From Planctomycetales bacterium (lineage in GTDB: Bacteria > 4484-113 > JAFGCY01), in NCBI GenBank assembly GCA_022646745.1, contig CP060262.1:1470001-1502000 (forward strand): a DNA stretch of 32,000 bases, in the 5' to 3' direction. Made by a program: the position numbers and the translations under genes. A model generated the notes under the pieces. The model was not told the origin of the DNA. It did not search any database and saw nothing but the letters and a program-made list of their open reading frames with translations. Below are positions 1-14,097 of the stretch, piece by piece (positions within the stretch are counted from its first letter, which is position 1; each line of letters starts with the position of its first letter).

Positions 1-984
1 AGCTGGGTGGTGATCCCGTTTGGCGTGGCGGCGGTCGACGGGCAGATCATCTACTACATGATCCAGGACCTGAACGTCGGCCTGCTTCTGATCATCGCCG
101 ACTTCGCGATGTTCCTCGTGGCCGTGATCATGTCCGGCTACGCCTCCAACAACAAATATGCACTGGTCGGCGCAATGCGCGAGGCCGCCATGCTGCTGAC
201 CTACGAGATCCCGATGCTGATGAGCCTCCTGTGCGTTGCCATCTTCGCCGGTTCGCTGAACCTGACGGAGATCGTGCAGCGCCAGACGATGACCTGGGGC
301 ATCCTGCCGCTGTTCCCGGCCTTCATCATCTACTTCGTCGTCAGCCTGGCTGAGACCAACCGCCCGCCGTTTGACCTGCCGGAAGCGCAGAACGAGCTTT
401 TGGGAGGTTACCTCGTGGAGTACAGCGGGATGCGCTTCGCGCTGTTCTACGTCGCCGAGTATTCGAACGTGTTCATCGTCAGCGCGATCATGACCGTCTG
501 CTTCTTCGGCGGCTGGAAGGGCCCGATGTTCCTCGGCCCCGACGGGCTGTGGCTGACGAGCCTGTTCTGGTTCCTGCTGAAGACCTATGCCGTGTGCTTC
601 TTCTTCATCTGGGCGCGTTCCACGATGCCGCGCATCCGCGTGGACCAGATCATGTTCTTCTCCTGGAAGTTCCTGCTGCCGGCCAGCGTGGTCGTGATGG
701 CGGCCACGGCGCTCGGCGTCGTCAACCGCCATCCCTGGTTCAGCGCGAACCAGATCGCAGTGTCAGACGTTGACGTGACCGCTCTGCAGCGCGTCACCCA
801 GTTCCAGACATTGACAACGGCCGAGGCACTGGCGGTGATGACAGTCCCCGAGAAGGCCTTCTTCTGGGGCTACAACGTGCTGTGCCTGTTCTTCGGACTG
901 TTCATCCTGATGATGGCCTGGCGCATCCTGTTCGTGGCGCGCCGCCATCCGCAGCCCCGCCGGGAGGTGAGCTGGACCGGATGA
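1..984 (+). CDS. nuoH: NADH-quinone oxidoreductase subunit H (NuoH/Nqo8), 5' end truncated by the window edge. It has a ~85-aa C-terminal extension containing one extra predicted TM helix.
   Basis: The NuoH signature LAETNRPPFDLPEAQNELLGGYLVEYSGMRFALFYVAEY is present, followed by PRIRVDQIMFFSWKFLLP near the canonical C-terminus. The frame is open from base 1. Stop is TGA 982-984. After about nt 724 the protein continues with a hydrophilic linker and the hydrophobic stretch FFWGYNVLCLFFGLFILMMAWRILFV. Confidence 0.93.
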   Translation, partial: SWVVIPFGVAAVDGQIIYYMIQDLNVGLLLIIADFAMFLVAVIMSGYASNNKYALVGAMREAAMLLTYEIPMLMSLLCVAIFAGSLNLTEIVQRQTMTWGILPLFPAFIIYFVVSLAETNRPPFDLPEAQNELLGGYLVEYSGMRFALFYVAEYSNVFIVSAIMTVCFFGGWKGPMFLGPDGLWLTSLFWFLLKTYAVCFFFIWARSTMPRIRVDQIMFFSWKFLLPASVVVMAATALGVVNRHPWFSANQIAVSDVDVTALQRVTQFQTLTTAEALAVMTVPEKAFFWGYNVLCLFFGLFILMMAWRILFVARRHPQPRREVSWTG

Positions 985-1451
985 GGATGCTGTCAACGAG
1001 CCAGAACCTGCTGCACATCCTCGGTGAGCTGCTGCTCGTGGCCGCCGGGGCCTGGGGCCTGTACCTGCGCATCGTGCTCGGCATCGCGCCGGTGCTGACG
1101 ACGCAGTGGTTCGGTCCGCTGGCCCTGCTGGCGATCGGCCTGCTGCTGGCCGTGCTGCCGCTCACCCCGGCCCGCAATGCGGCCTGGATCAACCCCTGGT
1201 TCAGGCAGCGTCCGGGAGTCGCTTCACTGCTGTGGAGCTTCGCGGCCTGCGGCTGCCTGTATTCGCTGTGGCTGCAGTACGAGCTGCAGTTCACACTCAG
1301 GCCAGTGCTGCTCTTGGCGCCAGGCTTCCTTTACTGGTTCGTGGTGACGGCGCCGGGGCACCATGCCCAGCTGCGCAACATTGCCGCAGCCGGGGCGCAG
1401 GAGGCAGTTGCCAGCGAAGGACAGTCGGTGGAGGAGGTGCAGCGTGCCTGA
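981..1451 (+). CDS. Hypothetical polytopic membrane protein (~156 aa, ~4 predicted TM helices) inside the nuo operon.
   Basis: ATG 981 overlaps the nuoH stop (ATGA). A GGGAGGTGA Shine-Dalgarno lies ~10 nt upstream. GC3 codon bias is strong, like the flanking nuo genes. Hydrophobic segments include LLHILGELLLVAAGAWGLYLRIVLGIAPVL, LALLAIGLLLAVLPL, LLWSFAACGCLYSLWL and VLLLAPGFLYWFVV. I recognise no family motif. Confidence 0.7.
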   Translation: MRMLSTSQNLLHILGELLLVAAGAWGLYLRIVLGIAPVLTTQWFGPLALLAIGLLLAVLPLTPARNAAWINPWFRQRPGVASLLWSFAACGCLYSLWLQYELQFTLRPVLLLAPGFLYWFVVTAPGHHAQLRNIAAAGAQEAVASEGQSVEEVQRA

Positions 1452-2439
1452 CGGGCATGACCTGACAATCCACCATCCGCTGCCGAAGCGCTGGTTCGGC
1501 TACACCGCGATGGACTGGTTCAAGTTCTACGGCTTCATCGCCGTGTCCTGGTTCACGCTGGTGTTCGTCTACACGAAGTACGGCGCACTGTTTGATGACT
1601 ATGCCTCCAAGCAGCCCACCGAGCAGTACTCGCTGATGTGGTTCACCGCCAGCGGCCTGCTGCTGGCCCTGCCTGCGATCCTCGGCTTCTTCTGGTGGGC
1701 CTCCGGCGCGCTTGTGAAGTACAGCCGCTGGATGCTGCGCGACTTCACACTCTGGCGCCTGCTGCTGTTCGTGATCATCCTGTTCTTCTTCATCGTCGAG
1801 TTTGACCCGCTGGACCGGATCCACCCGAAGATGAGCGTGAAGGGCATCGCCGACACGCCGAACCTGACGCTGCTGCTGAGCGGCGAGGGCTTCGCGATCT
1901 GGCGCGAGACCGGCAGCCTCCCGGTGTTCAAGTTCCAGCTCGGCTATTTCCTGCTCTGGGCGCTGTTCTGGTTCCTGGTGTTCGTGCTCAACCTGAGTTA
2001 CCTGGCAACGGGATTCAGCCAGTTCTGGTTCTTCAGCAACCGCGTGCACCGCTACGGCACTTCAGTGCTGACGGGCTTCCGCGAAACCGCCCGGCTGGCG
2101 ACGAACGAGCCCTTCACCGAGGACTACCCGCGCAGCCGGCCGAAGCTGCCCGCGGCCTACCGCGGCGTGCCGCTGCTGAACGTTGATTCACTGAGCGAGG
2201 AGGAGGCCCTGCGCATCATCGCCGCCGATGGCAGCGGTGCGATCGCGCAGGCTCCCGGGCAGCCGACGGTGCTGTTCGTGGACCTCGGACGCTATGACCA
2301 TGACCCGGCGCTTGGCGAACTGAAGCGCGCGGACGGCACCGCGCTCGTCGTGTTCGAGGAGCGCTGGGCGATGCCGGTTGCCAATCGCGAGGCACTGGTG
2401 CTGCCGCTCAGGCGGCCACGCGGGGAGGTGCGGGACTGA
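1444..2439 (+). CDS. Hypothetical membrane protein (~331 aa) in the nuo operon, with an N-terminal ~4-5 TM region and a ~120-aa hydrophilic C-terminal domain. It has no Cys-rich Fe-S motifs.
   Basis: GTG 1444 is in frame with track ORF 1363..2439, is preceded by GGAGGAGGTG and overlaps the orfA stop (GTGCCTGA). An alternative start is ATG 1510. Its stop TGA 2437-2439 overlaps the nuoJ ATG. Hydrophobic segments include FKFYGFIAVSWFTLVFVY, LMWFTASGLLLALPAILGFFWW, LWRLLLFVIILFFFIV and LGYFLLWALFWFLVFVLNL. Confidence 0.7.
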   Translation: MPDGHDLTIHHPLPKRWFGYTAMDWFKFYGFIAVSWFTLVFVYTKYGALFDDYASKQPTEQYSLMWFTASGLLLALPAILGFFWWASGALVKYSRWMLRDFTLWRLLLFVIILFFFIVEFDPLDRIHPKMSVKGIADTPNLTLLLSGEGFAIWRETGSLPVFKFQLGYFLLWALFWFLVFVLNLSYLATGFSQFWFFSNRVHRYGTSVLTGFRETARLATNEPFTEDYPRSRPKLPAAYRGVPLLNVDSLSEEEALRIIAADGSGAIAQAPGQPTVLFVDLGRYDHDPALGELKRADGTALVVFEERWAMPVANREALVLPLRRPRGEVRD

Positions 2440-3485
2440 TGGAAACCAGCCTGCCCGCCGGACTGCTGCTGCTGCGCAACGTGGCCCTGCTGGCCGCGCT
2501 GCTGGCCGCCGCCGGCCTGCTCGTCAGCCGGCTGGACGGCATCTTCCGCCAGCTGCTGGCAACGGCCGGGATCGCCGTGCTCATCGCACTGCTGGCCGCC
2601 CCGCTGGCGGCTATCGGCGGCAAGCTCAGCTGGGCGGAAGCCTGGCAGCTGGACGCGCGCATCCTGGTGACGGCCAGCATGCTCGCCGGCTTCTACCTGC
2701 TTAACCTGCTGCTGTTCAACCGCCTGCCGGCGGAAGCGGGCCTGCTGCGAACATCTGCCAGCGCATGCCTGGCCGTATTCGTGATCAGCTCCCTGCTGTT
2801 CCAGCCGCTGGTTGTCAACCTGTCCAACATGCTGATCATCGGGCTGGTCGGCGGCACGATCGCCTGCGTGCAGCTTTCGCTGCACCGCTTCCATGACCAC
2901 CGGCGCCTGCTGGCAATCCTCGCGGTCGTCGGCTTCATCGCCTTCTTCTGGGGCATGCTGGCACTCAGCGTACCGGCGCTCAGGCTGCTGAATTTCTTCT
3001 TCTGGCTGTTCACCGCAGGCGTTGTCGGCGGCGGAATCGGCTGTGTGACGATGCGCAATGTGTTCCACAGTGCGCTGATGCTGATCCTCTCGCTGTTCGG
3101 CGTGGCCGGCTACTTCATCCTGCTCAACGCTGAATTCCTCGCGATGGTGCAGGTGATCATCTACATCGGCGGCATCATGGTGCTGTTCCTGTTCGGCATC
3201 ATGGTCAGCCAGAACATCATCGGCACCGAACTGAAGCAGAACACTGACCTGAGCCCCTGGGCAGCGCTCTTGTGCACGATGCTGTTCGGCTTCATGGCAC
3301 TCGTCGGGATGTTCATGCAGTTCCCGCAGAACACCGAGTTCCCGCCCAGCGCGGCCGTGCTGACAAGCAATACCCAGGCCATCGGCTGGTCGCTGATGGC
3401 AACGTACACACTTCCCTTCGAAGTGGCCAGCGTGCTCCTGCTCATGGCGATGCTCGGCGCGATCATCCTGGTGAGGAAGGACTGA
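2439..3485 (+). CDS. nuoJ: NADH-quinone oxidoreductase subunit J (NuoJ/Nqo10) with a ~185-aa polytopic N-terminal extension.
   Basis: The C-terminal ~160 aa are canonical NuoJ: NVFHSALMLILSLFGVAGYFILLNAEFLAMVQVIIYIGGIMVLFLFGIMV ... LPFEVASVLLLMAMLGAIIL. The preceding ~185 aa are Leu/Ala-rich with ~5-6 hydrophobic segments. A GGGGAGGTG SD lies upstream, and ATG 2439 overlaps the upstream stop. Confidence 0.88.
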   Translation: METSLPAGLLLLRNVALLAALLAAAGLLVSRLDGIFRQLLATAGIAVLIALLAAPLAAIGGKLSWAEAWQLDARILVTASMLAGFYLLNLLLFNRLPAEAGLLRTSASACLAVFVISSLLFQPLVVNLSNMLIIGLVGGTIACVQLSLHRFHDHRRLLAILAVVGFIAFFWGMLALSVPALRLLNFFFWLFTAGVVGGGIGCVTMRNVFHSALMLILSLFGVAGYFILLNAEFLAMVQVIIYIGGIMVLFLFGIMVSQNIIGTELKQNTDLSPWAALLCTMLFGFMALVGMFMQFPQNTEFPPSAAVLTSNTQAIGWSLMATYTLPFEVASVLLLMAMLGAIILVRKD

Positions 3486-3970
3486 TGTTACTGCTGCTGC
3501 TGCAACAGTCCGAGGGTGGCTCGCTGGCGAGCGAGGGCCTGGCGCCGATCATCCAGGCGATCGAGTTCGCCTCGCGCCAGTGGTTCGCCTCCAGCGGAGA
3601 CACCCCGATGGTGTGGTTCACCAACGTGGACTACCACCAGTACTTCGTGCTCAGCGCGTTCATCTTCTGCCTTGGGCTGTACGGCGTGATCGCGCGGCGC
3701 AATGCGATCGGGATGCTGCTGGCGCTGGAGCTGATGCTGAACGCCGTCAACATCAACATGAGCGCGTTCAACTTCTACTACGGACCGAAATCCACCCTGG
3801 CCTCGTTCACCGCGGAGGAATCCGTGATGACGAACATGGGCCAGGTATTCTCGATATTCACGATCATCGTTGCCGCGGCCGAGGCCGCGGTCGGACTGGC
3901 GATCATCATCGCCTTCTACCGCATGAAGAAGAGCATCATGCTTGATGATGCCAACCTGATGAAGGACTGA
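3485..3970 (+). CDS. nuoK: NADH-quinone oxidoreductase subunit K (NuoK/Nqo11) with a ~45-aa N-terminal extension and a short loop insertion.
   Basis: ATG 3485 overlaps the nuoJ stop (TGATG) and is preceded by GAGGAAGG. NuoK core motifs are present, with both conserved membrane Glu residues: GMLLALELMLNAVNI and IIVAAAEAAVGLAIIIAFYR. The track ORF 3272..3970 shares this frame, but its first 71 codons overlap nuoJ. Confidence 0.88.
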   Translation: MLLLLLQQSEGGSLASEGLAPIIQAIEFASRQWFASSGDTPMVWFTNVDYHQYFVLSAFIFCLGLYGVIARRNAIGMLLALELMLNAVNINMSAFNFYYGPKSTLASFTAEESVMTNMGQVFSIFTIIVAAAEAAVGLAIIIAFYRMKKSIMLDDANLMKD

Positions 3971-4005: not shown

Positions 4006-6168
4006 GTGGTGCCTGAGATGCAGGGACTGCTGCCGCTGATTGCGCTTCTGCCGCTGCTGGCGGCGGGTGCGGGCCTGCTCATGCGCCGTGTGCCGGCCGT
4101 CGTCACTGCCCTACTCGGCGTGCTGTCGCTTGTGGCCAGCGCCGGGATGGCGCTCGCCGTCAACTCAACGCTGGATGCGGAGACCGGCCGCGCGGTCTGG
4201 CTGGTCAACTGGATCAGCGGCTACACCACGGAGATCCGCGCCTTCCCGCCGATCCCGCTGGCCCTGCGCGCGGACTACACCCAGGTGCTGTTCATCCTGA
4301 CTACCTGTCTGATCGGCGTGGCGGTGCTGCTGTATGCGATACGCGAGCGGCGCGCTGACCCGAAGGCCGCGCAGTTCCATGCACTGCTGACATTCTTCTG
4401 TGGCTCAATGCTTTTATTCCTCGTCAGCGACACTTTGATCCTGCTGTACATCGCCTGGGAAATGATGGGCCTCGCCGGCTACCTGCTGATCCGCCACAAG
4501 GGCACGCCGGAGGCCAACCGCGCCGCGCGCCAGGCATTCTGGACGACGCGCGCCACGGACTTCGGCCTGCTGTTCGCGATCTTCATCTTCATGTTCGGCT
4601 TCGGCCGCTTCGGTGTGCACATGGTGCAGCTCAGCCAGGTCAGCATCGGCTGGGTGGCGCAGCATGTGCCGGACCAGCTGTCCGCCGTGAACTGGATGAT
4701 CGTGGCCGGACTATTGGTGCTGCTGGCCGTGCTCGGCAAGGCAGCGCTCCTGCCGCTGTCATTCTGGCTGCCGGATGCGATGGTCGCCCCGGCGCCGGTC
4801 AGTGCGCTCTTGCACAGTGCCACGCTTGTAGCTGCCGGACCGCTGCTGGCCAGCGACCTGCTGTTCGGGCGCACCGTCGTACCGGTACAGGCGGACAGTG
4901 GCAACCCCGGCTGGTACGTGGCTCCGCTCGCATTGGCGGTGATGCTCGGCGGGCTGACGATGCTCGTGGGCTCGATCGTGGCCTGCTGCCAGAAGCAGCC
5001 GAAGAAGCTGCTGGCCTGGAGCACGGTCAGCCAGCTCGGCCTGTGCGTGATGGGCAGCGGAGCATTGGCAATGGAGGCCGCCCGCTTCCAGCTGCTGGCA
5101 CATGCCTGGTTCAAGGCCGCTCTGTTCCTTGCGGTCGGCATCGTGGTGGCCCGCTGGCATGAGGCACAGGCAACACATACTGACGACGAACCAAGCTTTG
5201 ACGACCTGAAGCAGTCCCCGGCCAGCGGCCAGCTGTTCTGGCTGGCCCTGTTACCGGCCGCACTGAGCCTGGCAGGTGTGATCGGGCTGGCGGGCTACTT
5301 CGGTAAGGACCAGATACTGTCAGCGCTGCTGTCACGCGCCGGGCAGGACTACGGTGGCAACGCACTGGCAACCACGATGCCCGCCATGCCGGGCTACTGG
5401 CAGGCCGGGGCACTGCTGCTGATCGCATCGATTCCCTTTACCGCAGCCTACTGTGCGCGCCTGCTGAGCGGGCTGATGCCTTCCCCCGGCAAGGAAGCTG
5501 CCAATGGCCTGGCGGAGCAGCAGTCCGCAGGCAATGGCTGGGCCGGACCGACTGTGATCTCCATCCTGCTGGCGCTGCTTGGCAGCATCGGCATCGCCGC
5601 CTTCTGGCCGTCCTACCGCGCCTACTTCGAGGGCCGGCTGCATGACCTGGCCTGGGCTGGCAACTTCGAACCGCTGGCCGCCGGCCTCTCGGTCGTGCTG
5701 GTGCTGGCCGGCGCAGTGCTTGGATTCATCTCCGCCTCGGAGCGCGGGCTGGCCAGCCCGACTCCATTGCTGACTAGCGTGACCGGATTCTTCCGCGAGG
5801 GGCTTTACTTGAAGCTCTTCTTCACCGGTCTCGTCGGTGGCTTCGGCGAGTTCCTCGCCATCCTGGCAGGCATTTCAGACATTCGCCTGATCGACTGGCT
5901 GTCAACGCGCATCGGGCGTGGTGGCCGCGGGCTGGCCAACGCCAGCGCCTGGCTGGACCTGCATTTCGTCGACGGCATCCGCTGGTGGTGCTGCGAGATC
6001 TGGTGGATCATCAAGCGGCTGCACGGCCGCTACTGGCAGAACGGGCAGATCCAGAACTACATGTTCGTGCTGCTGCTGGGTGCCGTGCTGATGTGCATCG
6101 TCGTCTCCTTCCCGCTCAACGAGACACTGCGGCGCATCATTCAGAGCTTCCTCGGGAGGTACGAGTAG
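4006..6168 (+). CDS. nuoL: NADH-quinone oxidoreductase subunit L (NuoL/Nqo12), an antiporter-like subunit with a C-terminal lateral-helix region.
   Basis: Motifs: YIAWEMMGLAGYLLI, LGKAALLPLSFWLPDAMVAPAPVSALLHSATLVAAG, HAWFKAALFLAVG and YFGKDQIL. The C-terminal region reads DGIRWW...QNGQIQNYMFVLLLGAVLM. AGGAGG lies upstream of GTG 4006. An alternative start is ATG 4018. Confidence 0.93.
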   Translation: MVPEMQGLLPLIALLPLLAAGAGLLMRRVPAVVTALLGVLSLVASAGMALAVNSTLDAETGRAVWLVNWISGYTTEIRAFPPIPLALRADYTQVLFILTTCLIGVAVLLYAIRERRADPKAAQFHALLTFFCGSMLLFLVSDTLILLYIAWEMMGLAGYLLIRHKGTPEANRAARQAFWTTRATDFGLLFAIFIFMFGFGRFGVHMVQLSQVSIGWVAQHVPDQLSAVNWMIVAGLLVLLAVLGKAALLPLSFWLPDAMVAPAPVSALLHSATLVAAGPLLASDLLFGRTVVPVQADSGNPGWYVAPLALAVMLGGLTMLVGSIVACCQKQPKKLLAWSTVSQLGLCVMGSGALAMEAARFQLLAHAWFKAALFLAVGIVVARWHEAQATHTDDEPSFDDLKQSPASGQLFWLALLPAALSLAGVIGLAGYFGKDQILSALLSRAGQDYGGNALATTMPAMPGYWQAGALLLIASIPFTAAYCARLLSGLMPSPGKEAANGLAEQQSAGNGWAGPTVISILLALLGSIGIAAFWPSYRAYFEGRLHDLAWAGNFEPLAAGLSVVLVLAGAVLGFISASERGLASPTPLLTSVTGFFREGLYLKLFFTGLVGGFGEFLAILAGISDIRLIDWLSTRIGRGGRGLANASAWLDLHFVDGIRWWCCEIWWIIKRLHGRYWQNGQIQNYMFVLLLGAVLMCIVVSFPLNETLRRIIQSFLGRYE

Positions 6169-7869
6169 TTGGACCAGACGCAGAGTTTCATAGGCTTCAT
6201 CTCGTGGATCAGCAACCCCATCACCCAGATGATGCTGGCCCCGCTGGTCGGCTGCCTGCTGGTCTGCCTGATCCCGAAGAAGAAGATCCTGCCAATCAAG
6301 ATCGTGGCCCTCGTGTTCTCGCTGCTCAGCCTGCTGTTTGCGGTGCTGCTGCTGACCGGGATGCCTGAAGGCGCCACCAGCTGGCGGCCCTACGCCGGAT
6401 ACACGGATACCTCGCAGAATGTGCAGGACCTGAAGCCGCTCGGGCAGTACACGCCCTTCCAGGCTGAGTTCCCCGGCTTCCAGTACCGTCAGGACATCGA
6501 GTGGATGGCGATCAAGATCGGCGAGAGCCGCAGCTTCAGCGTGCACTACGACGTCGGCATCGACGGCCTGTCACTGCCACTGGTGCTGATGACCTGTGCG
6601 CTGTTGCCACTGATCATCATCTGGGGCTGGTACCGCACGGAGCGGGTGAAGGAATTCCTCGCGCTGACCCTGTTCATGCAGGTCGGCCTGATCGGTTCCT
6701 TCGTCGCTCTGGACTTCGTACTGCTCTACCTGTTCTGGGAATGGATGCTGATCCCGATGTACGTGCTGATCGGCGGCTGGGGCAAGGACCGCGAGAAGGC
6801 GGCGCGCGCCGCGATCCGCTTCTTCGTCTACACGATGGCCGGCTCCGTGTTCATGCTGATGTCGCTCATCATCTGCAAGGTGATCAGCGCCGGCGTGTAC
6901 AGCTTCCAGATCCCGAACCTGGCAACCTTCCTGCTGAACGAGGGCTACACCGACGTCGTGCCCTGGCTGAGGATGTGGATCTTCCTTGGCTTCCTTGTGG
7001 CCTTCGCCGTCAAGGCACCGCTGTTCCCGCTGCACACATGGCTGCCGCCGGCCCATACCCAGGCCCCGGCCGAGATGTCAGTGATCCTTGCGGCGGTGAT
7101 GCTCAAGAGCGGGACATACGCCTTCCTGCGCGTGCTGTACTGGGCGCTGCCGGACCAGGGCTATGCAATCGGCCCGGTGGTTGCCACGCTGGCGGTCGTC
7201 GGCATAGTCTGGGGCGCGGCGGTCACGCTGGTGCAGACCGACATCAAGCGCATGATCGCCTACAGCTCGATCAGCCACATGGGCTTCATCATCCTCGGCT
7301 GCAGCGCCATGAATCCGCTGGCAACGACCGGCGCAATCTACCACATGGTGGGCCACGGCGTGATCATCACCACGCTGTTCTTGCTGGCGGACAGCATCGA
7401 GCGGCGTTACGGCACGCGCAATGTGCATGAGATCGCAGGGCTCGGATCAGCGGCCCCGCTGCTGGCGGGCATGCTTTCACTGGCGGCCTTCGCCGGCATG
7501 GGCTTCCCCGCGCTGGCCGGCTTCTGGGGTGAGCTGTACAGCCTGATGGGCGCGTTCGAGAACGGGCCGGGCTGGCAGACTGTGCTGGTTGGCAGCATCG
7601 ACGGCAGCCTGCTCCTGCAGATCCTCGCCGCGGTGGCGGTGATCGGCGTGCTGACAAGCGCGGTGTACATGATCAGCCTGCTGCAGCGCACCCTGCCCGG
7701 TGATGCGCCGGAGTCGGCAAAGGGCCACGTGCCGCTGCGCGAGGCCATCGTGCTGTTGCCACTCGGGGTAGCGATCATCTTCCTCGGCGTCTACCCGAAC
7801 TGGCTGATGCATATGTCAGCGGGCTATTCGGCGATGCTGGATTCGATCCACTCCGCCGGGATCTACTGA
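6169..7869 (+). CDS. nuoM: NADH-quinone oxidoreductase subunit M (NuoM/Nqo13), an antiporter-like subunit.
   Basis: Motifs: LYLFWEWMLIPMYVLIGGWG, FAVKAPLFPLHTWLPPAHTQAPAEMSVILAAVMLKSGTYAFLR and AGFWGE. TTG 6169 directly follows the nuoL stop, with GGGAGGT ~9 nt upstream. An alternative start is ATG 6229. Stop is TGA 7867-7869. Confidence 0.92.
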   Translation: MDQTQSFIGFISWISNPITQMMLAPLVGCLLVCLIPKKKILPIKIVALVFSLLSLLFAVLLLTGMPEGATSWRPYAGYTDTSQNVQDLKPLGQYTPFQAEFPGFQYRQDIEWMAIKIGESRSFSVHYDVGIDGLSLPLVLMTCALLPLIIIWGWYRTERVKEFLALTLFMQVGLIGSFVALDFVLLYLFWEWMLIPMYVLIGGWGKDREKAARAAIRFFVYTMAGSVFMLMSLIICKVISAGVYSFQIPNLATFLLNEGYTDVVPWLRMWIFLGFLVAFAVKAPLFPLHTWLPPAHTQAPAEMSVILAAVMLKSGTYAFLRVLYWALPDQGYAIGPVVATLAVVGIVWGAAVTLVQTDIKRMIAYSSISHMGFIILGCSAMNPLATTGAIYHMVGHGVIITTLFLLADSIERRYGTRNVHEIAGLGSAAPLLAGMLSLAAFAGMGFPALAGFWGELYSLMGAFENGPGWQTVLVGSIDGSLLLQILAAVAVIGVLTSAVYMISLLQRTLPGDAPESAKGHVPLREAIVLLPLGVAIIFLGVYPNWLMHMSAGYSAMLDSIHSAGIY

Positions 7870-8528
7870 TCCGCCTGCGCTGATTCCGCTGCGGGCTTCT
7901 TCTTCCCGCTGCCGACGCGGCTTTCCGTGCCGTCGAGGATGCGGCGGATGTTGCTGCGGTGCGTCCAGACCACGAGCAGGGCCACCGGGATGCCAAACGC
8001 CATATAGGGCCTGAGCGCCGGCACCGCCACTGCGAGGATGCCCACGCTCAGTGCCGCGAGGATGCTGCCGACACTCACCATGCGTGTTGTTGCCAGCGCG
8101 AGCAGGAACACGCCGAGCGGCGCCAGCACCCATAGCTGGTAGAGCGCGATCAGCACGCCGAGGCTGGTGGCGACGCCCTTGCCGCCCCTGAACTTCAGCC
8201 AGGGGGTGAAGGTATGCCCAAGGATCGCGGCCAGGCCGGTGATCAGCAGCAGCCAGGCGCGGCCGCTGATGGTCAGCCCCGGCGGGTTGACCGTGTCCAT
8301 CAGGCGCCCAGCGAGTAAAACGGGCAGCAGGCCCTTGGCCACGTCCAGCAGCAGCACGGTGAGGCCAGCCTTCCAGCCCATCACGCGCCAGACATTGGTC
8401 ATGCCGATGTTGCCGCTGCCATGTTTGCGGATGTCCATGCCCCCAAGCCGCGCAACGAGCCAGCCGAAGGGCAGGGATCCGCTCAGGAACCCGGCGAGCG
8501 CCAGCACTGTCAAGTAATATAGGGGCAC
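7863..8528 (-). CDS. plsY: Glycerol-3-phosphate acyltransferase PlsY.
   Basis: Motifs: GSGNIGMTNVWR, GHTFTPWLKFRGGKGVATSLG and WTHRSNIRRILDGTE. I place the start at GTG 8528, at the onset of the PlsY-like sequence (VPLYYLTVLALAGF). The longer track ORF, running to 8705, overlaps the PP2C gene and is Ala/Ser/Gly-rich. A TATACT hexamer lies 6 nt upstream of this GTG. Confidence 0.88.
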   Translation of the reverse strand: MPLYYLTVLALAGFLSGSLPFGWLVARLGGMDIRKHGSGNIGMTNVWRVMGWKAGLTVLLLDVAKGLLPVLLAGRLMDTVNPPGLTISGRAWLLLITGLAAILGHTFTPWLKFRGGKGVATSLGVLIALYQLWVLAPLGVFLLALATTRMVSVGSILAALSVGILAVAVPALRPYMAFGIPVALLVVWTHRSNIRRILDGTESRVGSGKKKPAAESAQADQ

Positions 8529-8534
8529 GCGGGA

Positions 8535-8542
8535 AGTATACT
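8535..8542. promoter_or_regulatory. Palindromic AGTATACT giving a TATACT -10-like hexamer on both strands between divergent plsY and the PP2C gene.
   Basis: On the minus strand, TATACT is followed by 6 nt and then the plsY GTG 8528. On the plus strand, TATACT (8537-8542) lies upstream of the PP2C ATGs at 8575 and 8581, with GGAG at 8568-8571. Confidence 0.4.
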
Positions 8543-8574
8543 CCGTGTGGCTGGCCGCTTGCGGCCCGGAGCAG

Positions 8575-10176
8575 ATGCAGATGTCTTGGAACCCGTTCAG
8601 GCGCAGGGATGATGAGGAGCCGGCCCAGGAGCCCGCTGCACATGATGCCGCGGCTGCCGCTCCGTCCATGCCTGCCGATGACGACCCGACTGACCCGCTG
8701 ATCAATGTCGCAAGCTACCGCGAGGAAAGCGAGACCATCCAGCGCTGGGACGGCATGCGCCTCGATCGCGTCAGCATCGGGGCCGGGGACGGCGCTGGTG
8801 GATTCCTCAAGCTGGTTCTGGAGCAGGGCGGGGCGGTCGCAGACGCATTGCCGGGAATCCTGCTGGAAGGCGGTGCACTGTTCGGCCTGCGCGACCTGCT
8901 GGCTGACGACAGGTCCGTACTCAGCGCAGCGATTGAGCCGGTGGATGTCAGTTTCCGCGAATTCTCCGCGGGCATCGAGTCCGGCCAGTTGCGCGTCCGC
9001 GTACTGGACATCCTCGTTGCGATGCATGACCTGGCGACCGGCTTCGCACGCTGCGAAGCAGGTGGGCTCGGCTGGCGACTCAATGCCGACGCACTGGGTT
9101 TCTGCCGCAGGCTGGACACTGCACCGGCAGGCTGGCAACTGCGCTTCTCGGGCTTCGGCGAACTGCAGCCGGGTGAGCCGGCTGATGCATCGGAGATCGT
9201 CACCCTGCTCCGGCCGCTGGTTGACAGTTTGCTGTCAGAACCGAAACTGCTGCCCGCCGGAAGCATCGCCACTGGACTGGACAGGCTGCTGGACGGCCTG
9301 CAGAACAATGACGGCCTGAGCCTCAGCAAGCTGGCAACGGAGATCCAGCGCAGCCTGCACCAGCTGCAGCTTGCCGGACATGCCACCACTGACAACGGCA
9401 TGCGCCGCCAGCACAACGAGGACGCCTGGCTGATGCTGGAGATGCGCCAGCACAGTGCGATCGGCAGTTCACTGTGCATTGCCGCGGTGGCGGACGGGAT
9501 GGGCGGGCATGAAAGCGGCGAGATCGCCAGTTCGCTCGCGCTGTCCATGCTGCGCCAGCAGCTGCAGACCGCCCTGACGGCTCCCAGCACCCGGCCGCAG
9601 GACACCGGTGTGCTGGCAATGCAGCTGGCAACGATCATCCCCGGCATCAACCGCGCGCTGATCGAGCGCTCGGCGATCGACCAGGCACTGACCGGCATGG
9701 GCACCACGCTGTGCGGCTTCGCGATGCTCGGCTCCGGCAGCACGCTCAGCAGCGACACGGCTGCGGGCTCAGCGGTGTTCAATGTCGGTGACAGCCGCTG
9801 CTACCTGGTCACGGCACGGTCACTGATACGGATCACCCGCGACCACAGCTTCGTGCAGGAACTGGTTGACAACGGTAGTGTAGACCCGGATGAGGCCTTC
9901 GACCATCCGCGCAAGAACGTGATCACACGCTGCCTCGGTGGCGACGGGCTGGAGATCCAGGCGGACATCTACAGCTTCCGGCCCGGGCCCTGCGAACGCC
10001 TGCTGGTCTGCAGCGATGGCCTGAGTGATGCGCTGCGTGACAGTGAGATCTCCGCCGTGCTGGCCGCCAATGCCCAAGCCGGCCTGGCGGTCACCGCCCA
10101 GGCACTGGTGGATGCCGCCAATGCGGCTGGCGGGCCTGACAACATCACGGTGCTGCTGCTGGACTGCCGGCTCTAG
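8575..10176 (+). CDS. PP2C-family Ser/Thr protein phosphatase with a ~270-aa N-terminal domain of unknown function.
   Basis: The C-terminal half carries PP2C/Stp motifs: NEDAWLM, VADGMGGHESGEIAS, GMGTTLCG, FNVGDSRCYLV, ITRDHSFVQELV, VITRCLG, LLVCSDGLSDAL and GGPDNITVLLLD. The start is ambiguous among GTG 8545, ATG 8575 and ATG 8581. GGAG at 8568-8571 favours 8575 or 8581. Confidence 0.88.
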   Translation: MQMSWNPFRRRDDEEPAQEPAAHDAAAAAPSMPADDDPTDPLINVASYREESETIQRWDGMRLDRVSIGAGDGAGGFLKLVLEQGGAVADALPGILLEGGALFGLRDLLADDRSVLSAAIEPVDVSFREFSAGIESGQLRVRVLDILVAMHDLATGFARCEAGGLGWRLNADALGFCRRLDTAPAGWQLRFSGFGELQPGEPADASEIVTLLRPLVDSLLSEPKLLPAGSIATGLDRLLDGLQNNDGLSLSKLATEIQRSLHQLQLAGHATTDNGMRRQHNEDAWLMLEMRQHSAIGSSLCIAAVADGMGGHESGEIASSLALSMLRQQLQTALTAPSTRPQDTGVLAMQLATIIPGINRALIERSAIDQALTGMGTTLCGFAMLGSGSTLSSDTAAGSAVFNVGDSRCYLVTARSLIRITRDHSFVQELVDNGSVDPDEAFDHPRKNVITRCLGGDGLEIQADIYSFRPGPCERLLVCSDGLSDALRDSEISAVLAANAQAGLAVTAQALVDAANAAGGPDNITVLLLDCRL

Positions 10177-11840
10177 CTGGCGAACACCGCGATCCGCGCA
10201 GCCGAGGGGTCGCTGACATAGAGGTAGCCCGTGGCCGGGTCATAGGCCAGGCCGGTCGGGCCCTGTGCCCCGAACTCCACATTCAGCTGGCCGTCACTGC
10301 CGAACTGGAAGCTGTACTCGCCGCTGCTGTCAAACACGCTTACGCGTCCCAGCGATGGCTCGCTGACGAACAGGCGGCCGGTCACATCAGCCACAACATC
10401 CCATGGCGCAGTGAGTGTTCCGTTGCCAGCAGGGCGGGCCAGTTCAGCGGAAGCCGCGAATTCATTGTCGAGCAGCAGCACACGGTCATTGCCAGTATCG
10501 GCCAGCGCCATGCTGCCATCGGGCAGCAGCAGCAGGCCGGATGGCCCGGACAGCACCAGCTGTGCATCAAGCGGGTCCAGCGGGCTGTCAAGGTAGACGC
10601 CGAGCGGGGTGAAGGTCGAAAGCAGGTTGCGTCCGCCGTCCAGCGCCACGATCCGCTCACCGTCGCAGCAGATGCCGCTGAGCAGCCCGAATTCACCGGG
10701 GCCGCTGCCAGCGGAGCCGAACTTGGAGCGGAACTGCAGTGCGCTGTTCAGGCGGAACACCTGGCTGTAGCCATTGTCACAGAGGTACACTTCGCCAGTG
10801 CCGGGGTCGATTGCCAGCGCAGCCGGCTCACGCATTGCGGCACTGCCCAGTTTGTCAATCCGGTGCAGCAGGCGGCCGTCCTCGTCGAAGGCCAGCAGGG
10901 CCGGATCAGCTTCGTCGCAGACCAGCAGGCGCCGGTTCTCAGCATCAAACAGCAGGCTGCCCGGTGCATCAAGTTGCGGGCTCGTGATCTGGCGCAGCAG
11001 GTCGAAGTCCACCGCCTGGCTGGCCAGCACTGCTGACAACCCACTCTCGATGCCGTTGTCACGCAGGGCAGTGACAGCATACTCGTATGACCCAGCAGCC
11101 GGCAGGATGTCCGTATGGCTGCCGGCCTGCAGCAGTTCCTCATTGAGCTTGCTGAAGGAATCCTCTCCAGCCGCACGGCGGTACAGGTTGAAGCCCGTTG
11201 CACCTGACACGCTGTCCCATTCGAGGCGGCGCAACTGTGTGGAAGCGGCGCTCAGCCGGGGTGCCGGAGGTGCCGCCAGCGGGTACTCCACCGGCAGCGG
11301 GCTATACAGCGCATAGCGCCCGAAGTTAGTGATGCTGAAGGAGAGGGACAGGCCATCCTCCGCCAGGCTGGCGGACAGGCCGGCCTGTTCGTAGCGCTGG
11401 CTGGACTCATTCCAGGACTGCACATCGAGGGGTGTTGCCAGTGGCCAGGCACTGGACAGCAATAGTTCGATCTCAATGCTGCCATCCAGTTCGACAGGGA
11501 TGAACCGGCCCTGCACGGCTGAGGTCGTGGCATTGCCGTCATCCGGAGTTGCCACCGGCGGGGCGGGCATGCTGCCGCTGATCTCGAAGGAGATTGCCAG
11601 GCTGCGGCCCTCCACTCCCGGCAGGCCGCGGTCACCTTCGCTGCGGTCGCGCAGCGCGATCTCGACATCGTCAGCCAGGGTGCCAGGCTGGATGATCGCC
11701 GTGATCCGTCCACCGTCACTCTCAAGCCTGGTGACGGTCTGCTCCTGCGGGCTGAATTGCACATAGCGTGCGCCGCCACCGCAGGCAGCCAGCACAGATG
11801 CCAGGGCCGCCAGCGCGGCCCACAGGCTCAATCCCCTCAT
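10173..11840 (-). CDS. Lipoprotein with a central fibronectin-III-like domain and a C-terminal NHL-repeat beta-propeller.
   Basis: The signal peptide has a canonical lipobox (LASVLAAC-GGG). The FN3-like segment reads RLEWDSVSGATGFNLYRR...YEYAVTALRDNG. There are repeated NHL-like blades (VYLCDNGYSQVFRL, LFVSEPSLGRVSVFDSSG, LYVSDPSAARIAVF). A GGAGGG SD lies immediately after the fliL stop, 6 nt before ATG 11840. Confidence 0.8.
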   Translation of the reverse strand: MRGLSLWAALAALASVLAACGGGARYVQFSPQEQTVTRLESDGGRITAIIQPGTLADDVEIALRDRSEGDRGLPGVEGRSLAISFEISGSMPAPPVATPDDGNATTSAVQGRFIPVELDGSIEIELLLSSAWPLATPLDVQSWNESSQRYEQAGLSASLAEDGLSLSFSITNFGRYALYSPLPVEYPLAAPPAPRLSAASTQLRRLEWDSVSGATGFNLYRRAAGEDSFSKLNEELLQAGSHTDILPAAGSYEYAVTALRDNGIESGLSAVLASQAVDFDLLRQITSPQLDAPGSLLFDAENRRLLVCDEADPALLAFDEDGRLLHRIDKLGSAAMREPAALAIDPGTGEVYLCDNGYSQVFRLNSALQFRSKFGSAGSGPGEFGLLSGICCDGERIVALDGGRNLLSTFTPLGVYLDSPLDPLDAQLVLSGPSGLLLLPDGSMALADTGNDRVLLLDNEFAASAELARPAGNGTLTAPWDVVADVTGRLFVSEPSLGRVSVFDSSGEYSFQFGSDGQLNVEFGAQGPTGLAYDPATGYLYVSDPSAARIAVFAS

Positions 11841-11851
11841 CGCAGGCCCTC

Positions 11852-12757
11852 CTATGAACTGACGATGTTGGGCAGCAGCACCTCGGTCACGCGGCCGTAC
11901 TGCTCGCCGATGATGTCATTGATCTTGATGCGGATGTTGTCCTTGAACAGGTCCTTGCCGCTCGGGCGGATGAAGTCGTCGGACACCGTGCGGGCGATCT
12001 CGTCGATGATCATGTCGCGGATGCGCGACTCATTCTCCATCAGGCGGATCTCCATGATCGAGCGCGGCTTCTCGGGCAGCTCAGGCATCTCCGGCGGCGG
12101 GGCTTCCTTCGGGGCGCCGTGCATCGCAGGCACGACCTCCACCCCGTCCGTGCTGCCGCCGGCAGCGTTGACGACCTCCGTGGCTCCGTCAGCCGGCGCA
12201 GTGTGCTCCTCCAGGCCTTCCTCCGGTGGCAGCGAGGCATGTCCGCCCTTGCCTCCGTCCTTCGGGTTGCCTTCCTCGTCAAGCCCGAGCTGGTAGTTGC
12301 GGTAGAGCTGCACGCCGCTGTCGTACTTCTCCATCATCGCCTCGTAGACCTCCCACTCGTGGCGGTCATACAGGCTGTCAACCTCGAGGATCACGTTCAT
12401 CTGAACGAACTCATTGTCAGCGGTGTTCGTCTTGAACTCGCCGAGCTCGTACAGCACGCCCTCTGCCGGGACCACGAAGTTGTCAGGGGAGTCGCCATGC
12501 TCAGCATGCCCGTCGTCGGCATGCGCCGCGTCCTCCTCGCCCGGCACGGCCAGGGTGCCGCTGTCCTCGAGCTTCGACTTCAGCCCGTTGAGCTGCATGA
12601 ACAGCAGGGCGCTGAATGCGATGGCCGCCACCGCGACCGCCAGCGAGGCTATCATCATCAGCGGTGGCTTCCCGCCGCCACCGGCGGCCTTGCGGACCTT
12701 CTTCGCAGGCTTGCCCTCCTGCACCTCATCAACATCAATTGCCTGATTGTCAGCCAT
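11852..12757 (-). CDS. fliL: Flagellar basal-body-associated protein FliL, with a long acidic/Gly/Pro-rich internal insertion.
   Basis: The topology is a short basic N-terminus plus a single TM (PPLMMIASLAVAVAAIAFSALLF). FliL-like blocks are VLYELGEFKTNT, FVQMNVILEV and ESRIRDMIIDEI...LFKDNIRIKINDIIG...VTEVLLPNIV. It is adjacent to motAB. A GAGAGGG SD lies upstream of ATG 12757. Confidence 0.75.
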   Translation of the reverse strand: MADNQAIDVDEVQEGKPAKKVRKAAGGGGKPPLMMIASLAVAVAAIAFSALLFMQLNGLKSKLEDSGTLAVPGEEDAAHADDGHAEHGDSPDNFVVPAEGVLYELGEFKTNTADNEFVQMNVILEVDSLYDRHEWEVYEAMMEKYDSGVQLYRNYQLGLDEEGNPKDGGKGGHASLPPEEGLEEHTAPADGATEVVNAAGGSTDGVEVVPAMHGAPKEAPPPEMPELPEKPRSIMEIRLMENESRIRDMIIDEIARTVSDDFIRPSGKDLFKDNIRIKINDIIGEQYGRVTEVLLPNIVSS

Positions 12758-12825
12758 ACAAAATGCCCTCTCTTCCGGGGTTCAACTCAACAGTATCTAT
12801 AACCTGCAGTTTTCGAACATGTGTC

Positions 12826-13137
12826 CTATTTCGGTCCCGCTTTATAACCGTGGAATTCCTTCAGCGTGTCGTGGTCGAGGATGTACACGCGGTTCTCGCT
12901 CCTGATCCGGTTGCGGTACTTCGGCGTGTTCGGCCAGTACAGTTGCCGGCTGCTGTCAGCAACATAACGGTAGTCGTCAATCGTAGTGTGCCCGGTGCTG
13001 GCAACGTCCATGAAATTCTGGCCAAACCCGGTGCCTTCCCCAGCTGGGCAGCCCCAGGCCAGCAGCGCGACCAGGCAGACCGGCAGCAGCATGATGGCCA
13101 GCCTGAACCAGGTCCTGCCGTACCATGCCTCAGCCAT
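12826..13137 (-). CDS. Small exported protein or possible lipoprotein (~104 aa) of unknown function, between motB and fliL.
   Basis: ATG 13137 lies 1 nt after the motB stop (13139-13141). The N-terminal hydrophobic signal is WFRLAIMLLPVCLVALLAWGC, with a non-canonical lipobox-like LAWGC. The mature part is hydrophilic. The longer track ORF, running to 13224, overlaps motB. Confidence 0.6.
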   Translation of the reverse strand: MAEAWYGRTWFRLAIMLLPVCLVALLAWGCPAGEGTGFGQNFMDVASTGHTTIDDYRYVADSSRQLYWPNTPKYRNRIRSENRVYILDHDTLKEFHGYKAGPK

Positions 13138-13138
13138 C

Positions 13139-14071
13139 TCAGTGCCCCGCCCCCAGCTCGTGCACCGGTATCCCCGGGCTGGGCTGTGGTCCGACAAGCG
13201 GCCCGGACGGCTCCTCCGCGGCATCCACTTCCGGCTCGTTGTAGCCCCGCAGGATCACGATCTCCACCCGGCGGTTCGCGGCCCGGCCGTGCACGCTGTC
13301 ATTGCCCTGCAGCGGATGGGTGTCAGCATAGCCGGCCACACTGACCTTGTCCCGCGGCAGGCCGTTGGCGATCAGGAGCCTGGCAACGCTGGCTGCTCGT
13401 GCGGCGGACAGTTCCCAGTTGCTCGGGTAGCGCGCGCTGGCAATCGGCCGGTCATCCGTGTGGCCCAGCACCTCGACGGAATTCGGCAGGCGGTTCAGTT
13501 CGGCACCCAGTGCGGCCAGCACCTCACGGAAACCGGGCTTCATGTCGGCGCTGCCGCTGTCGAACATCAGCTGGTCGTCAAGGAATGTCAGCACGATTCC
13601 CCGCTCGGTGAAGCGCATGCTGACACGCTCATCGTGGCCGAACTCCTGCATGATCTGCTCACCCTGCTGGCGGGCCTCGTTGTCAAGGATGTCACGCAGC
13701 TTCTCCAGCAGTCCCTCATCCCCGTTCTCGCCCTCCATGATGCGGCGGAAGCGGAAGATCTGGATCGGGGTCTGGTGCTCCGGGAACAGGATCGAGGGCG
13801 ACTCTCCGCCACTGATCGTGCCGATGTCAATCGGTGTCGTACTGGCGTCCTCCCCGATGCTCACCTCGGGATCGAGCGATGTGCTCTTGCGGTTGGCACC
13901 CATGCCGTTCGTCATGCTCTCCGCCAGGGCCTTGAACTTCTCCATCTCGATGTTCGACATCGAGAACAGGATGATGAACACGACGGTGAGCAGCGTGATC
14001 ATGTCTGCATAGCTGATCAGCCAGCGCTCATCGCCGCCTTCATTGCCTTGTGGTGCCTGTGGTATGTACAC
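13139..14071 (-). CDS. motB: Flagellar stator protein MotB (OmpA-like peptidoglycan-binding C-terminus).
   Basis: The N-terminal region WLISYADMITLLTVVFIILF contains the conserved channel Asp. The OmpA-like C-terminus reads VEVLGHTDDRPI...SNWELSAARAASVARLL...VAGYADTHPL...NRRVEIVIL. GTG 14071 is preceded by GAGGAG at 6-nt spacing. Confidence 0.9.
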   Translation of the reverse strand: MYIPQAPQGNEGGDERWLISYADMITLLTVVFIILFSMSNIEMEKFKALAESMTNGMGANRKSTSLDPEVSIGEDASTTPIDIGTISGGESPSILFPEHQTPIQIFRFRRIMEGENGDEGLLEKLRDILDNEARQQGEQIMQEFGHDERVSMRFTERGIVLTFLDDQLMFDSGSADMKPGFREVLAALGAELNRLPNSVEVLGHTDDRPIASARYPSNWELSAARAASVARLLIANGLPRDKVSVAGYADTHPLQGNDSVHGRAANRRVEIVILRGYNEPEVDAAEEPSGPLVGPQPSPGIPVHELGAGH

Positions 14072-14097
14072 GTATCACTCCTCGCGTGCTTTCCCCG

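Follow-up and report, generated by a model that had tools for sequence, protein, structure and literature searches.

Two membrane-protein genes, orfA and orfB, lie between nuoH and nuoJ of a complex I-like (nuo) operon in the genome of an uncultured Planctomycetales bacterium (assembly GCA_022646745.1, contig CP060262.1, positions 1,470,001 to 1,502,000; this whole stretch of 32,000 nucleotides is called the window below). Our analysis indicates that orfB, standing at the place of nuoI, almost certainly encodes the orthologue of NuoI, which carries a novel N-terminal anchor of four transmembrane (TM) helices and in which all eight cluster-ligating cysteines are replaced. An earlier note on this DNA had taken orfB for an unknown protein in place of NuoI, a view that fails in the face of the NCBIfam matches of its relatives, the Foldseek matches, a NuoI motif and cysteine-bearing intermediates. 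We consider it reasonably probable that this protein, denoted NuoI*, is the NuoI of a derived complex I-like assembly of the UBP7 lineage, dead as a redox enzyme and still moving ions, probably as a cation/proton exchanger resembling Mrp.

The decisive evidence for the identity of orfB is provided by proteins in which the same TM domain is fused to an intact iron–sulfur (Fe–S) NuoI. In an exhaustive HMMER search, 1.84 billion representative proteins yielded only 27 relatives of orfB. In the proteins P0060, P0064, P0065, P0068 and P0071, the TM domain and linker of orfB (E 6e-24 to 1e-12; 6e-24 to 6e-16 for the TM-domain matches of P0060, P0064 and P0065) are followed by an intact NuoI domain with two CxxCxxCxxxCP motifs, and P0064 matches the TYKY/NuoI chains at E 7e-25. 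One more relative, P0066, is a half-degenerate intermediate. The intact-NuoI genes are placed between nuoH and nuoJ in operons of the order nuoA-B-C-D-H-I-J-K-L-M, which contain no orfA, and the nuoH–nuoJ position of the orfB family genes is the same in all related loci. One of the intact relatives is annotated as "NADH-quinone oxidoreductase subunit I" and another as "hypothetical protein [Planctomycetales bacterium 4484_113]". Since the TM anchor is present in these intact proteins, the 4-TM domain predates the loss of the clusters.

The replaced positions were located by a MAFFT alignment of orfB with the intact relatives and E. coli NuoI. The sequence SEEEALRIIAADGSGAI (amino acids (aa) 251–267) stands in orfB where the relatives have C(I/V)xCxxCExxCPDRLI, and VDLGRYDHDPALGELKRADGTAL (aa 279–301) stands where they have (L/I)DxxRCxFCGLCEDxCPTxA(V/I). 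There is no cysteine in orfB and there are two in orfA, and the CxxCxxCxxxCP motif is absent from both, which confirms the earlier observations that the NuoI motifs are missing and that orfB has almost no Cys.

No Pfam or NCBIfam match was obtained in direct scans of the orfA and orfB proteins of the window. The C-terminal domains of 28 family members were scanned singly against 18,950 NCBIfam models. The NuoI model TIGR01971 was matched by half of them (14/28; best E 9e-4) and the NuoI model NF004540 by 12/28 (best E 1e-4), and 12 of the 14 NCBIfam families matched by these domains are NuoI, HycF, FpoI or HyfH. It should be noted that the E-values of the orfB relatives against the NuoI models are only 1e-4 to 0.07 and stay under the curated cutoffs. 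The profile of the C-terminal domain aligned with E. coli NuoI in hhalign (24–58 on 24–58, 37% identity) with PxTxxYPxxxxxLPxxYRG in register. The profile search of the PDB with full-length orfB gave matches at E ~1 only, which are suggestive and not decisive. In another comparison with PDB chains, six of nine weak profile matches were NuoI-family chains (including NDUFS8, NdhI and NuoI) at the NuoI motif. The motif forms part of the block RxHRYGxSVLTGFRETxxxxxxxPVTxxYPxxxxxLPxxFRGVPxLN, which is conserved in the 39-member alignment of orfB. Thus, the soluble C-terminal domain described in the earlier note does exist, and it is not devoid of recognisable motifs, as it starts with the canonical N-terminal motif of NuoI.

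The structural comparison led to the same protein family. The Foldseek search that the earlier note had recommended was run on orfB, and its four best PDB matches were all NuoI-family chains: 7z0s_F (E 7e-3), 8ibd_I (E 1e-2), 6khi_I and 6u8y_N (E up to 1.5; probabilities of 1.00, 1.00, 0.91 and 0.47 for the four; 101–141 columns). Three of the chain identities were verified, namely HycF (formate hydrogenlyase subunit 6) for 7z0s_F, NdhI for 6khi_I and MbsN (MBS subunit I) for 6u8y_N, and chain I of mouse complex I (8ibd_I) is presumably NDUFS8. Yarrowia NUIM appeared lower in the list. The ferredoxin-like fold of the orfB core is moderately supported by these matches, with modest TM-scores of 0.35–0.37 on the target.

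Taken together, orfB shares with NuoI/Nqo9/NDUFS8 (TYKY)/NdhI the position between nuoH and nuoJ, the N-terminal helix with the motif PxTxxYPxExxxLxxRFRG and the ferredoxin-like beta-alpha-beta-beta-alpha-beta core. It differs from them in having none of the eight ligating cysteines (both the N6a and N6b motifs are gone), in its extra 4-TM domain of ~200 aa and in falling below the curated cutoffs of the hidden Markov models (HMMs).

The genes of the operon present in the window and the parts of orfB are as follows (AF2, AlphaFold2):

7–984, + strand: nuoH, the C-terminal 325 aa, its 5' part being cut by the window start (Pfam NADHdh, E 2.8e-78, aa 1–234)
981–1451, + strand: orfA, a membrane protein of 156 aa with ~4 TM helices, candidate clade-specific accessory subunit (ATGA overlap with nuoH, Shine–Dalgarno (SD) box)
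1444–2439, + strand: orfB, 331 aa, in all likelihood a TM-anchored, cysteine-free NuoI orthologue, NuoI* (family HMMs, Foldseek, motif alignment, intact relatives)
1444–2040, + strand: N-terminal 4-TM domain of orfB, aa 1 to ~199 (AF2 helices; common to the intact Fe–S relatives)
1804–1866, + strand: loop motif of orfB, DPLDxIHPxMSxKG(L/I)AxxPNL, aa 121–141 (conserved extramembrane loop, predicted to be periplasmic)
2053–2166, + strand: NuoI N-terminal signature of orfB, YGTSVLTGFRETARLATNEPFTEDYPRSRPKLPAAYRG, aa 204–241 (hhalign to E. coli NuoI; HMMER to NDUFS8/NdhI/NuoI chains)
2194–2346, + strand: degenerate ferredoxin core of orfB, 0 Cys (MAFFT alignment, AF2 pattern, Foldseek)
2439–3485, + strand: nuoJ, 348 aa (Pfam Oxidored_q3 limited to aa 199–344)
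3485–3970, + strand: nuoK, 161 aa, with an N-terminal extension (Pfam Oxidored_q2; E36 and E72 conserved)
4006–6168, + strand: nuoL, 720 aa (NCBIfam NuoL)
6169–7869, + strand: nuoM, 566 aa, the final gene of the operon (TIGR01972 NDH_I_M, 450 bits, cutoff 264)

The genes around orfB are joined by overlapping stop and start codons. At the nuoH/orfA junction, the stop codon of nuoH overlaps the start codon of orfA in ATGA at 981–984. The GTG start codon of orfB lies 8 nt inside orfA within GTGCCTGA at 1444–1451, and the stop codon of orfB overlaps the start codon of nuoJ in TGATG at 2437–2441. The purine-rich, SD-like boxes gggaggtg, ggaggagg and ggggaggtg precede the starts of orfA, orfB and nuoJ, respectively. 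The junction between nuoJ and nuoK (3485) is coupled in the same style, and SD-like boxes are also found upstream of nuoL (4006) and nuoM (6169). The overlaps and the GGAGG-like boxes had been described in the earlier note, which considered orfA and orfB to be co-transcribed, translationally coupled and lineage-specific members of the nuo operon. On all these points it was borne out, the coupling being read from the junctions. Gene coordinates and start contexts show that the overlaps from nuoH through orfA and orfB to nuoJ are also present in the related locus L001, whose orfB is only 50% identical to that of the window.

In the AF2 model of orfB (mean pLDDT 82.9), four TM helices and a small insert outside the membrane are seen along with a long helix and a beta-alpha-beta-beta-alpha-beta domain. 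The modelled helices of the N-terminal domain span aa 22–46, 58–93, 95–120 and 166–219 (pLDDT mostly >80), the fourth crossing the membrane with aa 166 to ~190, and the soluble C-terminal domain begins at about aa 200. Based on the positive-inside rule and the AF2 model, orfB is predicted to have its N-terminus inside and its C-terminal domain in the cytoplasm, on the side where NuoI sits, and the loop of aa 121–165 is predicted by the same rule to be periplasmic. This loop, between TM3 and TM4, contains the nearly invariant motif DPLDxIHPxMSxKGLAPAPNL. The core of the motif, DP(L/F)(D/N), is also present in the intact-NuoI relatives and is therefore older than the loss of Fe–S ligands. No fold in the PDB was matched by the 4-TM domain in Foldseek. 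The possibility that orfA and the TM domain of orfB (~8 TM helices together) represent a split NuoN was rejected, given the lack of Proton_antipo_M in Pfam and of any antiporter-like fold match of orfB.

The other redox subunits were examined as well. Since nuoB, nuoD and the 5' part of nuoH lie upstream of the window, they were read in the loci L002 and L005, which are near-identical to it. The NuoB protein of L002 (1470–1922; 150 aa) is clearly related to Nqo6 of Thermus thermophilus (2fug_6, E 6e-38) and contains no cysteine at all. It has GLDYATLE for GLACCAIEM, GAGAISG for GACASSG and PGDPPRPE for PGCPPRPE (CC to DY, C to G and C to D), so that all four cysteines binding cluster N2 are lost, and the same replacements were found in six of the six loci examined. 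In NuoD of L002, GPQHPSLPSPLEL stands against GPQHPAAHGVLRL (HPSLPSPLEL for HPAAHGVLRL) and SRCEW against DRLDY. The altered positions are those which, on the basis of established complex I structures, we take to be the quinone-headgroup His (HPxxHGV) and Tyr (RxDY).

The NuoH proteins of the UBP7 lineage are 572–591 aa long (591 aa in L002:7766–9541; see also L001:7856–9574). Directly after RxGP of the TM1–2 loop, they carry a hydrophobic insertion of ~150 aa with several predicted TM helices, which is confined to this lineage and is absent from L013, L015 and L016. By analogy with the solved structures, this loop presumably lines the quinone cavity. The whole clade, including L013, L015 and L016, has a C-terminal extension of NuoH (~90 aa; window ~710–984) that contains a single TM helix.

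The related loci differ in how much of the redox machinery they retain. L015 and L016, which encode an intact NuoI, retain the redox residues of NuoB (the cysteines) and of NuoD (His and Tyr) as well. L013, which carries the half-degenerate P0066 (L013:10001–11065; NuoB at 6440–6916), has lost the four cysteines of NuoB and the His and Tyr of NuoD, and P0066 retains exactly four cysteines: from motif I the CP cysteine, and from motif II the three of CxxCxxC. In ferredoxins with two [4Fe-4S] clusters, such a set of four ligates a single cluster. L013 is thus a possible one-cluster intermediate, to judge from its sequence, or a case of independent loss. For the UBP7 operon, we find it very likely that the encoded NuoB, NuoD and NuoI* are unable to carry the canonical electron path.

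In contrast to these losses, the residues of the ion path are nearly all kept. The membrane subunits of one close and one distant genome were compared with E. coli NuoH, NuoJ, NuoK, NuoL and NuoM (NC_000913.3). The residues kept in NuoL are E144, D178, K229, H254, H338, K342, K399 and D400, while at H334 the window lineage has Q and L001 has H. E144, K234, K265, H322, H348 and E407 are kept in NuoM, E36 and E72 in NuoK, and Y59 in NuoJ. Eleven of the 13 residues checked in NuoH are kept as well (D63, E71, R148, E157, E216, E220, E228, E241, R293, D295 and K303), the exceptions being E218, which is Q or S, and E36, which did not align.

The membrane arm is also enlarged. In the window lineage only, NuoJ has an N-terminal hydrophobic extension of ~190 aa (window 2439–3010) with no family match; NuoJ is 348 aa long in the window, 227 aa in L001 and 167–172 aa in L013, L015 and L016. 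The TM15–TM16 segment in the C-terminal part of NuoL (window 5700–6168) exceeds its E. coli counterpart by ~27 aa, and a duplicated FDLWV(I/V)DxLVN unit is clear in this segment of NuoL in L015 (12066–14291) and L016. The lengthening resembles the extension of the lateral helix in "2M" complex I, reportedly described by Chadwick et al. in 2018.

The operon recurs in related genomes and is maintained by selection. The DNA of the window is 94% identical to the contig JAGRNR010000009.1 ("MAG: bacterium isolate UBP7 HKST-UBA01"). Homologues of orfB (n = 40; 320–384 aa, 43–98% identity) have the N-terminus in common. The gene was found in seven species genomes of the GTDB-based collection, several labelled UBP7 and two "uncultured Planctomycetales"; the seven GTDB species keep the architecture, with orfB 44–98% identical to the window copy. 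The order nuoA-B-C-D-H-(orfA)-orfB-J-K-L-M is found in each locus long enough to show it. No nuoE, nuoF, nuoG, recognisable nuoI or nuoN was detected within 10 kb in the loci examined, and neither nuoN nor a third antiporter-like subunit lies within ±10 kb in 10 loci, the operon encoding only NuoL and NuoM. In the window's own lineage, nuoA-B are ~4 kb apart from nuoC-M (L002:1922–6050; also L005 and L007), and this gap is missing in L001. In L002, it contains an open reading frame (ORF) of 180 aa, a TfoX_N-like gene, a PAS/HisKA/HATPase/receiver hybrid histidine kinase and an ORF of 91 aa, the last three on the opposite strand.

The ratios of nonsynonymous to synonymous substitution rates (dN/dS) between two UBP7 species are 0.15 for NuoB, 0.16 for NuoD, 0.23 for NuoM, 0.29 for orfB and 0.50 for orfA. 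Thus, among the five genes tested, those for the cysteine-less NuoB and NuoD are under the strongest constraint; the two proteins show 58–69% identity between the UBP7-type lineages compared (65–69% for NuoB). Because of their homologues, the recurrence of the overlaps in L001 and these ratios, orfA and orfB are confirmed as real genes under purifying selection and not chance ORFs.

From these observations, the following course of events may be proposed. NuoI would have gained its 4-TM anchor in an ancestor that the UBP7 lineage has in common with the phylum-4484-113-type relatives and would then have lost all eight Fe–S cysteines in the UBP7 lineage. In parallel, the N2 ligands of NuoB and the His and Tyr of NuoD would have been lost and the insertion in the TM1–2 loop of NuoH gained. 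The sister lineages would represent a series running from a fully intact system, through a one-cluster NuoI beside a cysteine-less NuoB, to a system with no ligands. Since the redox ligands of NuoB, NuoD and NuoI* are gone, the stub of NuoB, NuoC, NuoD and NuoI* seated on NuoH may be a cofactor-free structural cap that passes no electrons to quinone. Since nearly all the ion-path residues checked are kept and the subunits are under purifying selection, the membrane arm probably translocates ions without redox drive. We see roughly even prospects that the product is an L-shaped complex I free of cofactors, with N6a, N6b, N2 and the quinone site erased and the membrane arm kept and enlarged, which acts as a redox-independent translocator. 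Its likeliest mode would be secondary cation/proton exchange, which is favoured because Mrp is made of the same L/M/K/J-type modules and because deactive complex I performs antiport; as a specific activity, antiport is proposed here only tentatively. The orfA protein may be a small membrane subunit that joined the complex later and is translated together with NuoH and NuoI*; its most likely place is against the new TM domains, close to where NuoH, NuoI* and NuoJ meet. Together, orfA, the TM domain of orfB, the NuoH insertion and the extensions of NuoJ and NuoK would add ~15–20 TM helices, probably clustered at the heel.

Several known systems resemble this operon in part. Complex I-like enzymes of 11 subunits without NuoEFG are known from the cyanobacterial NDH-1 and the Campylobacter and Desulfitobacterium types (PMC3144371, PMC11238625). 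Like them, the UBP7 operon has no N-module genes and has the genes of the core (A–D and H–M) in a single operon order. Those enzymes retain clusters N2 and N6a/b, the quinone site and NuoN, whereas in UBP7 the Fe–S and quinone ligands are gone, the locus has no nuoN, and membrane domains and orfA have been added. The Mrp antiporter likewise combines two antiporter-like subunits of the NuoL/MrpA and NuoM/MrpD kinds with NuoK/MrpC-like and NuoJ-like parts, and it is free of redox cofactors. It also has MrpB, MrpE, MrpF and MrpG and is without homologues of NuoA, NuoB, NuoC, NuoD, NuoH and NuoI, whereas the UBP7 operon keeps NuoH and a peripheral stub, albeit cofactor-less. Neither orfA nor orfB matched the Pfam families of the Mrp small subunits, and with NuoA-D and NuoH present the operon is not an Mrp operon. 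Deactive mammalian complex I acts as a Na+/H+ antiporter once the link between its membrane and redox domains is broken (PMC3464577), and ion exchange of a similar kind is proposed here for the UBP7 assembly. The deactive form is a reversible state with all its cofactors loaded, while the disconnection in UBP7 would be permanent and genetically fixed.

The energy-converting hydrogenase-related (Ehr) complexes, as described in PMC6349859 (citing Marreiros et al. 2013), are members of the complex I/group-4 hydrogenase superfamily that have also lost catalytic-site ligands. They are hydrogenase-like and still presumed to be redox enzymes, whereas the small subunit of UBP7 has lost its cluster. 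Membership in Ehr was rejected, as NuoD matches the 49-kDa subunit of complex I at E 3e-84, MbhL at 4e-44 and HycE at 5e-32. Furthermore, NuoD ends in the NuoD-type DIMIGEVDK and does not have the character of a group-4 [NiFe]-hydrogenase-type large subunit with lost Ni/Fe ligands. No description of an Fe–S-free or NuoI-less complex I, or of a TM-anchored NuoI, was found in full-text literature searches.

Other explanations of the operon were weighed against the redox-dead ion translocator. It could be supposed that orfA and orfB are novel proteins unrelated to NuoI, serving as new subunits, assembly factors or regulators of a working NADH/ferredoxin:quinone oxidoreductase. The failure of either window protein to match Pfam or NCBIfam on its own speaks for this, and the earlier claim of two novel proteins does hold for orfA, which has no detectable relatives outside the clade. 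For orfB, the claim is refuted by the NCBIfam, Foldseek and motif evidence and by the intermediates with intact cysteines, which make it NuoI. We regard this explanation as very unlikely, as is the NADH:quinone role in a working respiratory complex envisaged in the earlier note, with the N2 ligands of NuoB and the His and Tyr of NuoD lost as well. That the operon is a decaying relic, a non-functional complex I heading for loss with orfA and orfB as its degenerating remnants, would account for the joint loss of the functional motifs of NuoB, NuoD and NuoI and for a toxin–antitoxin-like pair between nuoH and orfB in L010. We find it hardly credible: none of the 11 ORFs is broken and they are coupled in translation, seven GTDB species retain the architecture at the orfB identities given above, and domains were gained too, not just lost. 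The operon is not decaying, because NuoB and NuoD are constrained and conserved, the cysteine-less NuoB having the lowest dN/dS, and because nearly all the residues for ion translocation are retained.

A redox activity by non-canonical means, through cysteine-bearing NuoB/NuoI paralogues or another input module encoded elsewhere or through a non-Fe–S cofactor, is in our view quite unlikely. The nuo genes are already split by the gap of 4 kb, with three unrelated genes, between nuoA-B and nuoC, other parts may be encoded elsewhere as nuoN is missing from the locus, and the one-cluster set of four cysteines in NuoI of L013 means that partial retention of cofactors is possible in the clade. On the other hand, the cysteine-less NuoB, NuoD and NuoI* are conserved and co-translated with the membrane subunits and are therefore the assembling partners, the loss of N2 and the quinone His/Tyr together with the NuoH loop insertion removes the known terminal step for any donor, and no redox gene is conserved beside the operon across the loci. 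It is also rather unlikely that the N2/quinone pocket was repurposed for non-redox chemistry or sensing coupled to the proton-motive force, with orfA and the new TM domains contributing to a new site. Such reuse would have its analogy in CO2 hydration by the cyanobacterial NDH-1MS or DAB complexes, and a preprint describes complex I-like scaffolds reused for vectorial CO2 hydration (bioRxiv 10.64898/2026.08.03.742399). The replacements conserved in UBP7 (GLDYATLE in NuoB, SRCEW in NuoD and the DPLDxIHP loop in orfB) also suggest constraint rather than drift. What weakens this idea is that no carbonic-anhydrase-like, Cup-like or other catalytic gene lies in the operon or consistently beside it, and no metal-binding motif was identified.

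The preferred reading, a redox-dead NuoI* assembly that still moves ions, has points against it too. The orfB protein of the window itself falls below detection by the NuoI HMMs, and the direct sequence evidence is sub-threshold for each single model, being strong only collectively and through the intermediates. The Mrp-specific small subunits MrpB/E/F/G are absent from the operon, which leaves an Mrp-like ion path hypothetical. The role given to orfA is our inference, its structural model is unusable, and two related lineages do without the gene. All the sequences come from uncultured, metagenome-assembled genomes (MAGs). Canonical nuoB, nuoI or nuoN paralogues elsewhere in these genomes may supply the cofactors or a third antiporter-like subunit, and the lateral helix of NuoL may span more membrane mass than NuoL and NuoM, although no nuoN is present in the locus.

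The central problem of complex I is how quinone-site chemistry powers proton pumps that lie far from it. If our reading is correct, the UBP7 operon would be a natural specimen of an uncoupled complex I with the E-channel and antiporter modules intact, and its structure and transport activity would reveal the mechanical contribution of the peripheral stub in the absence of electron flow. It also bears on whether the membrane arm works alone and on the relationship between complex I and Mrp, and the graded series of sister lineages gives an order in which the redox machine was dismantled. For annotation, such operons are a warning: they would be classed as "complex I lacking NuoI/NuoN", with the risk that a respiratory NADH or ferredoxin:quinone activity is wrongly credited to their hosts.

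As for orfA, sequence comparison makes it a candidate for an uncharacterised, optional, clade-specific accessory protein. Its homologues, nine close and three distant ones (collected from the loci), always stand between nuoH and orfB, and it evolves faster than the neighbouring genes. The invariant residues include G15, E16, W25, P60, P63 and R75, E16 being in the first predicted helix (aa 6–32). The AF2 model of orfA has a pLDDT of only 52. The relatives gave nothing above noise against Pfam (DsbB 0.012 in 2/11, VKOR 0.17), which was not taken as homology. The orfA HMM matches the loci of the window type, L006/L007, L001, L008 and L009, and gave no match in L010, L011, L013, L015 or L016. In L010, the slot of orfA is occupied by two small overlapping ORFs (L010:9214–10004) that resemble a nucleotidyltransferase/HEPN (MNT-HepT type) toxin–antitoxin pair, an assignment made by eye on the basis of GSxxRGExxxxSDLDLLV and RNxxxH motifs. 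The slot of L011 contains an unrelated hydrophobic ORF of 230 aa, and L009 has an additional ORF of 199 aa. The nuoH–nuoI junction seems to be a place where genes for small membrane proteins are gained and lost.

Downstream of the operon, the remaining part of the window contains genes of other kinds. On the minus strand, plsY (7863–8705; Pfam G3P_acyltransf) is convergent with nuoM. Four long ORFs match no Pfam family at E ≤ 0.001, namely 15149–17680 (−, 843 aa), 12986–14302 (+, 438 aa), 20897–22393 (+, 498 aa) and 23572–24612 (+, 346 aa). The ORFs of 498 and 346 aa share their stretch with a family-2 glycosyltransferase, a polysaccharide deacetylase and a HEAT-repeat protein. Genes for NHL/beta-propeller and FliL-domain proteins, with MotA near them at 14098–14898, lie 3' of the nuo operon in the window (10173–14898), and NHL/beta-propeller and FliL-domain genes are also found 3' of the operon in the intact-NuoI locus L016 (18603–20931). 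This shared synteny suggests that the lineages of the window and of L016 are related.

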